Shown here one piece after another: positions 1 to 8,207 of a stretch of 64,000 nucleotides of DNA. The notes below the pieces were generated by a model. That model did no database searches and was not told where the DNA came from. It saw nothing but the letters and a program-made list of their open reading frames with translations. The stretch's first letter is position 1. Each line of letters starts with the position of its first letter. Origin of the DNA: an uncultured delta proteobacterium (GTDB taxonomy: Bacteria; Myxococcota_A; UBA9160; SZUA-336); assembly GCA_963704165.1 (NCBI GenBank), contig CAVPHD010000001.1, positions 384,001-448,000 of the forward strand. The letters are read 5' to 3'. Made by a program: the position numbers and the translations under genes.

Positions 1-635
1 GTGGCGGGCCGCGCGATGTCTCCGGTCGCCGGCGGCTCGGCCATCGGGTTGCCGCCGCGGTGTCTCAGGCCGAAAGCGTCGATCGCGGCGAGATCGGGAT
101 CCGACAGCACCGGGAACGTGAGCCCGAGCTTCTCGACCACGGCCCGGTTCTGCTCGACGCCATCGACGGAAACCGCGACGAGCTTCGCGCCCGCGGCCTG
201 GAAATCCGAAGCTCTAAGCTGCAGCCCGCGCAGCTCCGACATACAGAAGGGTCACCAGTGACCGCGGAAGAAGACGAGCACGAGCTTCTCGCGCGCGAGC
301 GAGCCGAGCTCGACATCCTGGCCGCGGTCGTCGCGAAGCACGACGGCGGGCACGGTCTCGCCGACGTCGAGCGCGAGCTCGACTCCGGGAAGCACGCTCG
401 AGAAGACGTAGCAGTACCAGACGAAGAACCCGCCGAGGAAGAGCGTCAGGACCAGCCCGATCGAGGCGAGCGCACGGCGGCGCGAGCGAACGAGCCCCGC
501 GACCGAGAAGCCGAGCGCGATCGCGAGCACCGTCAGATTCACCCACGGCACGTCGCGCGTGATCGGCCACGTGGCGAACACCGTGAAGTAGGAGAGGACG
601 CCGACGATCGCGAGTATCGGGCCGAGCCAGACCAT
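1..635 (-). CDS. Membrane-anchored AhpC/TSA (peroxiredoxin-like) selenoprotein with UxxC motif; 3' end runs off the window
   Basis: About 3 hydrophobic N-terminal helices, then LVLVFFRGHW-TGA(254-252)-PFC. The frame stays open to base 1 with thioredoxin-fold motifs (KLVAVSVD, LTFPVLSDPD, DIARPA). Confidence 0.88.
216..236 (-). promoter_or_regulatory. Candidate bacterial SECIS hairpin
   Basis: GAGCUGC-[GCGGGCU]-GCAGCUU stem-loop. The loop starts with G and lies about 22 nt after the UGA. Confidence 0.7.
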
Positions 636-2285: not shown

Positions 2286-3793
2286 ATGACCCCGATCGTC
2301 GAGACCCGTCTCGGAAAAGTGTCGGGCGAGAGCCTGGGCGACCACGTTCGCTTCCGCGGAATTCCGTACGCCGCTCCGCCCGTCGGGGAGCTTCGCTTCC
2401 GCGCGCCGCGCCCGGCGACTCCCTGGTCGGGGGTGCGCGCCGCGGTCGAGTTCGGCCACTCGGCGCCGCAGAACCCGAGCTTCCTGCCGGGGATGGAGTC
2501 GGGTGCGCAGAGCGAGGACTGCCTGTACCTGAACGTGTACACGCCGCGCGCGGACGGCGCGCTCCGACCGGTTCTGTTCTGGATCCACGGCGGTGGCTTC
2601 ACCGGCGGCTCGGGCGGGCAGGCGCTCTACGACGGCGGACGCCTCGCCGCGCGCGGCGACGTCGTCGTCGTGACGATCAACTATCGGCTCGGCGCGCTCG
2701 GGTACACGACACTTGCCGGGCCTCGACCCGAACTCGGGTCAACAGGACCAGATCGCCGCGCTTCGGTTCGTGCGCGACAACATCGCGGCGTTCGGCGGCG
2801 ATCCGTCGCAAGATCACGATCTTCGGCGAGAGCGCGGGTGGAATGGCGGTCGCGACGTTGCTCGGCATGCCCGCCGCGCGCGGGCTCTTCCGCGGCGCGA
2901 TCGCGCAGAGCGGCGCCGCTCATCACACGCACAGCCCCGACAGCGCGACGCGAATCGGGCAGAGCGCTGCTCGCCGAGCTCGGGCTCTCGCCGGGCGACA
3001 CCGAGAAGCTTCGCGACGTGCCGGTTCCGGCTCTGCTCGCGGCGCAGGCGCGCGTACTCGCCGAGAACACGCGTGCCGGCGGACTGCTCGCGTTCGCGCC
3101 GGGTCTCGACACCGAAACGCTTCCGCGTCACCCGCTCGAGGCGGTGCGCGACGGAGCGGCTCGCGACGTCGCACTTCTCGTCGGCGCGAACCGCGACGAG
3201 ATGAAGCTCTTCCGCATGGGCATGGCCGCGAGCAGCGAGCTCGACGAGGCGCGGACTCGTCAAGCGGGTTCGAGCGGGACTGCGCGTCCACGGCGCCGAC
3301 GAGTCACACGCGCCGAGACTGATCGAGACCTACCGCGCGGCGCGCACCCTCCGCAGCCTCGACCGAGCCCTTCGAGCTCCTCGACGCGATCGATTCCGAC
3401 CGCACGTTCCGCGTGCCTTCGATCCGACTCGCCGAGGCCCACGCGGCGCAGCAGCCACGACACCTACCAGTACCTCTTCACCTGGAGTTCGCCCGCCGGC
3501 GCGGCACGCTCGGGGCCTGTCACGCGCTCGAGCTTCCGTTCGTGTTCGGAACGCTCGACGCACCGACGATGGACCGCTTCGCCGGCAAGGGCCCCGACGC
3601 GGAGACGCTCGCCGCGCGCATGATGGACGCCTGGATCGCGTTCGCGCGCAACGGCGAGCCCGGCCACGAAGATCTGCCGGCCTGGGCGCGCTACGACGCC
3701 GCGAAGCGCGCCACGCTGGTCTTCGATCGCGAGTGCGAGCTCGCGCACGCTCCGCTCGATGCGGAACGCGCGGCGTGGGACGGAGTGATCTAG
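2286..3793 (+). CDS. Second type-B carboxylesterase paralog, split by several frameshifts
   Basis: SEDCLYLNVY, WIHGGGF, FGESAGG and GACHALELPFVFG occur in different frames, colinear with the upstream paralog. Confidence 0.85.
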
Positions 3794-5791: not shown

Positions 5792-8207
5792 GTGTTGAGC
5801 CCGCTCGAGTTCTCCCTCGCGAGCGGGACGATCCTGCTCCTGGCCGCATTCGTCGCCGTGCTTCGCCCGACCTGGATCGTCGACCATCCGCGTCTGGTGC
5901 TCGGCCTGCTCGCGCTCGTGACGCTCGGCATGGCGGTGGCGCTGGTTCGCCCCGATCCGCTCGGCTTTCGCATCGGCGTGGACGCTTCGAGCGAGCCGAT
6001 GCTTCCCGAGAACGATCCCGGCGAACCGGTCTACCAGCGCGCGATCCTCGACTTCGGCGACGACGACGTCTTCGTGATCGCGATGGAGACCGAGGACGTC
6101 TTCACGCCGGAGAACCTCGGAATTCTGCGGACGGTCAGCGACGAGATCCGCAGGTTGCCCGGCGTGCGCGACACCGAGAGTCTGGTCGACGTCTACGCGT
6201 ATCACTGGGATCCGGGAGACGAGCTCGTCGAGCTCGGCCGCTTCATCGACGAGATCCCGACCGATCCGGCACGCCTGGCCGAGCTGCGGGTCCGCGCGCT
6301 CGACGACCCCCTGTACACCAAGACGATCGTCGCCCGCGATGGGCGCACGGCGGCGATCAACGTCACGTTCAAGTCGATGAGCGACGACGACTTCGTCGAG
6401 CTCGCACTCGACGAACGGATCACGGCCATCCTCGAGGCCGCGGAACGTGACGGCGTCGAGTTCCACGTTACCGGGCGGCCCCACGTGCGCTCGCGCGCGC
6501 ATCACCTTCTGCTCCACGACATGCTGAATCTGATACCGATCGCCGTGGGCGTGGCGGTGCTCGCGCTCTGGTTGATGACAGGATCCGTGCGCGGCACGCT
6601 CGTGCCGCTCGTCGCGAACCTGACCGCGACCTTCTGGGTCTACGGCGCGATGGCGCTCGTGGGTTCGGATCTGAACCTGATCACGCTGGTGCTCGGGCCG
6701 GTGATGATCACGGTCGGCGGCGTCTACGGTGTCCACGTCCTCGCGCGCTACGAGGTCGTGGCGGAGACGTCGGCCGATGCGCGCTCGGCCGCGCTCGAAA
6801 GCCTGCGGCACACGACCGCGCCGGTTCTGATCGCGGGCTGCACGACGATGATCGGCTTCGCCGCGCTGCTGATCAACGAGATTCCCGCGACTAGCGATCT
6901 CGGCGCGTTCTGCGTCTTCGGCGTCGCGTCGATCACGGTGATCTCGCTGACGGGAGTGCCGGCCGCGCTCTCGCTGCTTCCGCTCCGCGGCGCGAATGGC
7001 AGCGGCCGCGCGCTCTACTCCGCGCAGACGAGGCTGGCCGAGTCGGTGCAGCGCGCGATCAAAGCTGCGCTCGGAGGTCTCGGCCGCTTTCAGGTGCGCT
7101 ACGCGCCCTGGGTGCTCGCGTTCTGGGTCCGTGACCGCGATCGCTGCCGGCTCGTTCGTTCCGCGAATCGTCGTCGATACCGACTTCATCACCTACTTCC
7201 TCGAGTCGTCCGACGTGCGCCGGGATTTCGCGGCCGTCAACCGGCTGCTCACCGGCGCGGTGCCGATCTACGTGGTGATGCAGGGGAGCGAGGAGGGAAC
7301 GTTCCGCGAGCCCGACGCGCTTCGCGCCGTGGAGCGCCTGCAGCGGCGGATCGAGGCGCTGCCCGGCGTGACGAGCGTCGCTTCCGTCGTCGATCTGGTG
7401 AAGACCGCGCGGCAGGCGCTCGAGCGGGGCGATCCGGCGGCCGCGCGAATTCCCGATACCCGGCTCGAGACCGCCGAGCTCGTGTTTCTGATCCCCAAGG
7501 AGAAGCTGCGCGCATTTGCGACTTCGAATCACTCGAGCGCGAACCTGCTCGTTCGCACCGATCGGCTCGGCTCCGCCGCGTTGCGAGCAATCGAGACCTC
7601 GATCCGCGCCGAGATCGCCGCAGAGACCCTGCCGGCGGGCCTACACGCCGACGTGACGGGCAACTCCATCCGCATCAACCGCGGCGCGGACGGCATCGCC
7701 GGAAATCAGATCGGGCAGCTCGGGCTCACGGTCGGCTGCATCCTCCTGATCGTGTGGCTGGTCTTCGGTCAGCTCGGGCTCGGCCTGCTCGCATTGCCGA
7801 CGAACGTGATGCCGGTGGTGAACTTCTTCGGCCTGCTCGGCGCCGGCGTCGCGACTCTCTCGGTGCCGACGAGCCTGATCGGCTGCGTCGCGCTCGGAAT
7901 CGCGGTAGACGACACCTGTCACTTCCTGCAGGTGTTTCGAAAGGAGCGCGCGCGCGGCGTGAGTGCCGAGGACGCTGCGCTTCACTGCATCGTCGAGGTC
8001 GGGCGGCCGATGGTGGTGACCTCGATCATGCTCGTCGCGGGCTTCCTGGTGATGCTCTTCTCGAGCTTCGCCACGCTGCGCGAGTTCGGCTACCTGACGG
8101 CGATCACCATGGGGCTCTGCCTCGCGACCGACGTCGGCATGCTTCCGGCGCTGCTCGTGGTGGCAAAGCGCCTCTCCGATCCGCGTCGCGTAGAATTGCC
8201 GGGGTGA
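5792..8207 (+). CDS. MMPL/RND-family lipid transporter (frameshift near 7130)
   Basis: Two repeats of a periplasmic loop plus TM bundle; TTMIGFAAL and ALGIAVDD motifs; ORFs 5792 and 6996 join. Confidence 0.85.

Follow-up and report, generated by a model that had tools for sequence, protein, structure and literature searches.

What does the minus-strand TGA at positions 254-252 of this stretch mean: does it end one gene and leave a second, smaller open reading frame behind it, or is it read as selenocysteine within a single gene, and what would the product of such a gene do? The window, by which we mean the whole stretch of 64,000 nucleotides that was analysed, corresponds to G000:C1:384001-448000, where G000 is the host genome; below, L followed by a number denotes a locus and P followed by a number a database protein cluster representative. 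The frame in question begins with the ATG at 635-633, and an alternative ATG lies four codons upstream, so that the start is uncertain by four residues. It contains a single internal TGA, codon 128, in the context FFRGHW-U-PFCMSEL. The 83 open codons that the earlier note had counted between this TGA and the window edge are indeed there, and the frame continues to 243 codons in all, the stop of the gene being a second TGA (codon 244) outside the window. The features of the locus are these:

1..635, minus strand: gene for a three-helix, peroxiredoxin-like, very probable selenoprotein of 243 residues (whole gene G000:C1:383907-384635; the final 94 coding bases lie outside the window)
570..626, minus strand: predicted transmembrane helix 1, residues 4-22, in which W3, G5, S15, Y16 and F20 are conserved
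543..566, minus strand: conserved loop 1 (P24, R27, D28, P30, W31), predicted to lie on the outer side, that of the redox domain
486..545, minus strand: predicted transmembrane helix 2, residues 31-50, then a basic loop, RSRRR, predicted to be cytoplasmic
402..476, minus strand: predicted transmembrane helix 3, residues 54-78
3..371, minus strand: thioredoxin/peroxiredoxin-fold domain, residue 89 onward, PF00578
252..254, minus strand: in-frame TGA, codon 128, presumed selenocysteine
243..266, minus strand: active-site segment R124-G-H-W-U128-P-F-C131, in which R124, G125, W127 and C131 are invariant (85/85)
216..236, minus strand: SECIS-like hairpin with an 8-bp stem and the loop CGGGC, 23 nt past the UGA, -9.8 kcal/mol
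6..11, minus strand: invariant R209-P210, with P210 at the position of the catalytic Arg of peroxiredoxins

We have little doubt that the two apparent open reading frames are one gene, whose UGA at codon 128 is very likely read as selenocysteine. The match to the Pfam family AhpC-TSA (PF00578) spans the TGA, with 81.8 bits against a cut-off of 26, and none of the NCBIfam models compared with the protein is over its own cut-off. To collect homologs, a profile of the pre-UGA part only was scanned against genome contigs, and the best 80 of at least 345 relatives were kept. Directly after R-G-x-W, 79 of these 80 have TGA and one has TGC, and in all 80 the frame stays open for 106-142 codons past the site, completing the domain, with stops (TAA, TAG or TGA) lying mostly 110-125 codons past it. 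Since the fetching profile ends before the codon, yet 79 of the 80 have TGA there, the conservation of TGA in this column is far beyond chance. The earlier note had proposed selenocysteine in a W-U-P-F-C motif, expecting Cys or Sec in this column of the homologs, and had considered that they might instead terminate there; it was right in the former, and the latter is not the case. These best 80 relatives belong chiefly to Acidobacteriota, and also to Verrucomicrobiota, Planctomycetota, Dormiibacterota and records labelled Myxococcota. One counted row (L043, from G055) and one of the seven loci of the phylum sample described below (L116, from G235) come from genomes marked as unpublished, and neither is used as the sole basis of any claim.

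A separate set, the 20 best loci from 41 related genomes, has TGA in 19 and Cys in one at this column. Within it, a clear three-helix membrane domain is found only in the seven closest loci, our own included, the remaining loci having other hydrophobic N-termini or signal-like leaders. L012, from a genome of the same genus, and L029, from a record labelled Myxococcota, have identical translations. Full-length Cys forms also exist, namely L030 and P0090, and in a tree of a chosen subset of 41 rows L030 pairs with a Sec form (support 100/99) inside a well-supported, mostly Sec clade, a position that suggests a change from Sec to Cys. Such a natural Cys form makes the function testable in E. coli. 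Another Cys form, L028, has a longer hydrophobic N-terminal module, and in several relatives of the same class (L016, L017 and L023; L018-L022 and L024) the W-U-P-[FY]-C domain carries N-terminal modules that are hydrophobic but of still other kinds; the joining of a membrane module to this domain may have occurred on more than one occasion. P0010, P0193 and P0170 are full length but lack Sec, having Ser there or a motif that is altered, and it is possible that they are non-selenium or inactive variants, or sequence errors.

In protein databases the family looks quite different. A profile of the membrane domain retrieves 364 cluster representatives at E-values up to 1e-10, and among the best 150 of these 364, 68 stop exactly at R-G-x-W, the residue before the UGA (one more was judged by eye to do so), two (one with Cys, one with Ser) read on through the motif and a third has an altered motif at full length; all others are either fragmentary or lose the frame, so that only three are full length. 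The statement that UxxC peroxiredoxin-like selenoproteins are routinely mis-annotated as truncated is well illustrated by these 68. The subfamily is therefore nearly invisible as a redox enzyme, gene callers splitting the gene in two, and what is gained here is mainly a correction of annotation, together with the addition of a near-obligate Sec family (79 TGA in the best 80 of at least 345 relatives) to genomes of Acidobacteriota and to those labelled Myxococcota.

The host genome, which is 84% complete, has what is needed for selenocysteine. In G000, selA, selB and selD are all over cut-off, selD carries an in-frame TGA of its own, and there is a tRNA-Sec with the anticodon tca; the Sec trait supposed for this organism is thus present, and all four of selABCD, whose lack had been thought of as a check, are found. 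When 50 of the genomes of the best 80 homologs were examined for selA, 46 of the 49 that carry the TGA gave a match over cut-off (of the other three, two gave no match and one fragments only), while the single genome with the Cys form (L030, TGC) gave no selA match. A script search of G000 further turned up four thioredoxin-fold genes with an in-frame TGA at the redox motif, listed with the motifs UPPC, TPGU (the true peroxiredoxin type), WASWUGC and UIFC. These candidate selenoprotein genes, at G000:C7:167249, C9:338829, C5:24008 and C2:120122, are unannotated, and each of them, like selD, has a hairpin fitting the SECIS model.

For the TGA itself, one may also consider explanations other than selenocysteine. 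It might be a true stop, or have arisen by a nonsense mutation or an error in sequencing, and leave a membrane peptide and a separate small open reading frame (from the ATG at 242). Contigs placed on the locus came mostly from relatives below 90% identity and were given no weight for the base call of this organism. Neighbouring genes do look frameshifted (see below), so the assembly is not error-free, and the database representatives that end at R-G-x-W would be what a true stop predicts; such truncation is, however, also the expected product of gene callers, and the TGA occupies the same column in several phyla, followed throughout by a long open frame, while full-length forms with Cys occur in nature. 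We regard this explanation as very unlikely, and a pseudogene in particular was rejected, being largely refuted by the conservation of the TGA column. That this organism reads UGA as Trp (code 4) or as Gly (code 25) might be suggested by the W that two database proteins, P0008 and P0009, have at this column, but the gene itself stops at a TGA, a tRNA-Sec is present and the natural substitutions at the column are Cys. On these grounds both codes were rejected, and we give them practically no weight; read-through of TGA at non-Cys columns was looked for in the selA and selB matches of G000 and none was seen.

A bacterial selenocysteine codon should be followed by a SECIS element, for which the criteria set out in passages of a recent catalogue are a hairpin 16-37 nt after the UGA, a G within the loop's first two positions and a minimum free energy of -7.5 or lower (PMC13188914). 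The hairpin of our gene agrees with all four of the criteria in those passages (23 nt, CGGGC, 8 bp, -9.8 kcal/mol). The same test is passed by 11% of 500 random TGA sites of contig C1, which makes it a loose one. Within the family, -7.5 kcal/mol with a perfect stem is reached by only 27 of 84 members, and -5 kcal/mol by 78 of 84, as against 18% of 560 in-gene controls; the Cys homolog L030 retains an equally stable hairpin. Folding of the whole region after the UGA was not more stable than that of shuffled sequences (z of 1.33, 0.75 and -0.28), and a search for compensatory double changes among seven close sequences found none, pair counting doing no better than the shuffle control.

Conservation of codons is a better test for the SECIS than the hairpin itself. 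In four genes of the same genus, of the 11 residues conserved across codons +1 to +13, 10 are encoded by an identical codon, compared with 68 of 136 elsewhere (p 0.008, for a stretch of codons chosen after looking). Codons +4 to +8 hardly vary in a group of 68 genes, most of them acidobacterial, where they read AAC (60/60), TCC (67/68), GAG (68/68), TTR (65/66) and CGG (67/68), and they form a stem whose loop lies 16 nt past the UGA; a test of these 5 columns against 29 others gave p 0.0003, for kin that are not independent. In the group to which our own gene belongs (M-type, 17 genes), the stem is found seven bases further on, with CTG in 17/17 and CAG in 17/17; one of its pairs is A-U in 12 genes and G-U in 5, and another is G-C in 8 and A-U in 5. 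For synonymous sites, the column test in this group of 17 was not significant (p 0.16). The two registers are mutually exclusive, one at 16 nt (AGUUR, codons S-E-L-R), found in L038-L108, and the other at 23 nt (mostly NGGNN, codons L-x-G-L-Q), found in our gene, L013 and L031-L035. L072 falls in both motif groups, being the sole exception to the first stem and carrying the second; like L112, it is an acidobacterial gene with the 23-nt register. The family offers a clear example of a SECIS in two alternative positions.

What kind of redox protein is this? The term peroxiredoxin-like, used in the earlier note, is correct as far as the fold and the PF00578 match are concerned, the closest folds being those of the BCP/AhpE peroxiredoxins (Z 22.6, rmsd 1.9 over 147 residues), with ResA at Z 17.9 and human PRXL2B/PGFS at Z 16.9 (rmsd 2.3 over 137 residues). 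It is not correct if taken to mean a true peroxiredoxin. Despite the closest fold, the peroxiredoxin site is absent, since in a profile alignment R124, U128 and P210 stand opposite the Pro, Thr and catalytic Arg of AhpE and BCP, with the AhpE R116A chain as a check; P210 aligns with AhpE R116, and an invariant Arg, R209, lies one residue earlier. In contrast to the true peroxiredoxins of the same fold (BCP/PrxQ and AhpE; TxxU in the Sec form), the Pro, Thr and Arg are therefore all replaced, and a true peroxiredoxin was ruled out, both the PxxxT/SxxC(U) motif and the catalytic Arg being absent. C131 lies at the position of the peroxidatic Cys. R124, R209 and P210 are invariant in 85/85 sequences, and the position of P210 is presumably that of the cis-Pro of thioredoxins. 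U128 and C131 are in register with the CxxC of ResA, U128 corresponding to its first Cys; the models for the ResA/TlpA/CcmG group nevertheless score far below cut-off (NF002854, 45.7 against 170; NF047696, 18.5 against 230), and the model of the SelL-related redox protein (NF040769) is not reached either (47.4 against 120).

The three or so N-terminal transmembrane helices noted before are seen both as three hydrophobic peaks in the N-terminal part of the protein and in an AlphaFold model (pLDDT 90, pTM 0.83), which has three long N-terminal helices (4-22, 31-50 and 54-78) and a peroxiredoxin-type domain. Across 85 sequences, the loop that joins helices 2 and 3 has a mean K+R count of 4.7, as against 1.0 for loop 1 and 1.4 for the residues that follow helix 3, and the bias favours N-in/C-out in 85/85, by a charge count with helix boundaries set by hand. 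According to the positive-inside rule, which is established, this bias predicts that the redox domain and loop 1 quite probably lie on the outer (periplasmic) face. Loop 1 is strongly conserved in these sequences (R27 83/85, D28 82/85, P30 83/85, W31 82/85), as is Y16 (84/85), and there is no conserved Cys in the membrane domain (C75 occurs in 8/85), so that an electron relay by this domain is unlikely. Pfam gave no match to residues 1-85 of the protein and only scattered weak matches among 30 members, and a fold search with the model of the membrane domain by itself returned generic helical bundles (best Z 8.5), which does not amount to evidence of a new fold.

The gene belongs to the 'Prx-like 1' UxxC selenoproteins, with which it shares PF00578, U128-P-F-C131 as the UxxC and the motif R-G-x-W-U-P-[FY]-C. 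Peroxiredoxin-like selenoproteins with UxxC, in place of the TxxU of peroxiredoxins, had been defined within PF00578 by 2005, as sections of that work state (PMC1088965), and the portion of the 2026 catalogue already cited includes peroxiredoxin-like thiol:disulfide oxidoreductases (PMC13188914). The membrane form, which the earlier note took to be unusual, is less so than supposed: it constitutes a subfamily spread over several phyla, and a three-helix member has been in a published list since 2008. In supplement file 3 of the GOS selenoproteome the entry JCVI_READ_1095467476295 is listed under 'Prx-like 1', and its printed sequence matches L034 by eye over the length shown there, membrane domain included (PMC2398784). 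L034 itself has the three helices; it shares 41% identity with our protein and groups with it in the 41-row tree (support 99/95). The other 'Prx-like 1' entries in the portion of the supplement considered are, in contrast, soluble or have a single N-terminal hydrophobic stretch, and the main text contains neither 'membrane' nor 'transmembrane', so that the three-helix domain was listed there, not described (PMC2398784). A description of this domain was not found in the literature searched, most of it outside subscription journals; the main text of BSepDB has no matching terms, and its database and supplements may hold these genes.

ResA, TlpA and CcmG have one membrane anchor. They resemble our protein in a CxxC-type motif in register, a Pro at the cis-Pro position and a domain on a membrane anchor that is predicted to face outward, and differ from it in that here there are three conserved helices, Sec, scores below the NCBIfam cut-off and no cytochrome c biogenesis neighbours. 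PRXL2B/PGFS likewise has a peroxiredoxin-like fold with CxxC, an Arg four residues before it and a Pro loop, as far as a comparison of spacing with the published excerpt goes, but it is a eukaryotic Cys enzyme, 18% identical, whose aligned range includes no three-helix domain and whose substrate is PGH2. In the published sections on it, PrxL of Caulobacter (cd02969) is an exported peroxiredoxin-like protein that lacks the catalytic residues of peroxiredoxins and is reduced by ScsB; it differs in that a signal peptide takes the place of the three helices, its two Cys are far apart, it belongs to another CDD family and it has no Sec (PMC3322552).

Taken as a whole, the explanation that we favour, somewhat cautiously, is that of a thioredoxin-fold UxxC selenoprotein that three predicted helices anchor in the inner membrane and that acts as a disulfide reductase of the envelope. 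In this scheme SelB would bind the hairpin 23 nt downstream of the UGA and deliver Sec-tRNA(UCA), and insertion with N-in/C-out topology would bring the domain, together with the conserved R-D-x-P-W loop, to the periplasmic face. By analogy with the thioredoxin mechanism, the selenolate of U128 would attack a substrate disulfide and C131 would resolve the intermediate, after which a DsbD/ScsB-type transporter of the host could re-reduce the protein. That the substrate is a disulfide rather than a peroxide seems to us probable, and a thiol-disulfide reductase of the envelope fed by DsbD/ScsB is its likely job, a view for which PrxL serves as the model: this periplasmic peroxiredoxin-like protein is kept reduced by ScsB and, in the sections of the paper concerned with it, has no peroxidase activity (PMC3322552). 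The host has two DsbD_TM genes, neither of them adjacent to the selenoprotein gene. One of the two is next to an exported peroxiredoxin-like gene; L109 (G000:C6:167993-171634), a large gene of DsbD/ScsB type, lies immediately upstream of such a gene. DsbB was sought in G000 (84% complete) with no match, and neither dsbD, ccm nor another redox partner is a conserved neighbour among the loci compared.

The same selenoprotein might instead be a peroxide reductase at the membrane surface, similar to PRXL2B/PGFS, whose substrates would be (endo)peroxides, lipid or organic; R124 and R209 would make up a positive pocket and the three-helix domain would present the lipid. The endoperoxide pocket of PGFS is shaped by a Pro loop and by an Arg that precedes the first Cys of CxxC by four residues, according to the excerpted account (PMC12938796), and our protein has R124 four residues before U128 and the invariant R209 and P210, an equivalence that is drawn from spacing. 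The fold match to PGFS and the still better ones to the BCP/AhpE peroxidases point the same way, as do the polar and aromatic residues conserved in the membrane domain (Y16, R27, D28 and W31), which go beyond the need of a plain tether. On the other hand, the canonical peroxiredoxin site is absent, and the periplasmic PrxL, when tested, lacked peroxidase activity in the results cited above (PMC3322552); we therefore consider a peroxide reductase possible but rather doubtful. A bolder form of it would make the three-helix domain a substrate-presenting module (Y16, R27, D28, P30 and W31) that works with the arginines around U128; the enzyme would then depend on selenium to reduce lipid peroxides at the inner membrane's outer face and be a bacterial counterpart of GPX4 in role, spread in soil Acidobacteriota, hidden by annotation and with a SECIS moved between two codon registers. 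This we put forward only as an unlikely conjecture; if the membrane domain did present a lipid substrate, it would amount to a new peroxide defence of the envelope. Finally, the redox domain could be cytoplasmic and reduced by thioredoxin or a low-molecular-weight thiol. Most proteins with matching peroxiredoxin folds are cytoplasmic enzymes, and no envelope-redox genes are conserved as neighbours, but the N-in/C-out charge bias in all 85 sequences speaks against a cytoplasmic domain, which we hold to be quite improbable.

As for distribution, the membrane profile, with 33 candidates scored per genome, detected the family in at least 6 of 150 genomes in a sample of the acidobacterial phylum and in none of 150 genomes in a sample of the host's own phylum. 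The commonest neighbours, at the best 80 of at least 345 loci, are YCII (17/80), DoxX-like (13/80) and glyoxalase (13/80) genes, and because they are nearly confined to Pyrinomonadaceae and unclassified Acidobacteriota (L038, L040, L060, L067, L070 and others) we take them as a sign of kinship. L095, in a record titled Nevskia soli, is a copy closely resembling those of Bryobacterales (compare L054), and the record is possibly mislabelled or a mixed bin. At L026:1408-2712, a peroxiredoxin-like UxxC domain appears by eye to be fused to a C-terminal SAM-methyltransferase-like domain. At our own locus, NIPSNAP-like, GNAT and nucleotidyltransferase genes lie downstream and carboxylesterases on the other strand. 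A second carboxylesterase gene (window 2288-3793) and an RND/MMPL-like gene (5792-8207) appear to be broken up among several frames, pointing to indel errors in the assembly. The nucleotidyltransferase, at L001:8037-8804 (G000:C1), has an AadA C-terminal domain and comes after the NIPSNAP-like and GNAT genes, with which it shares the strand.
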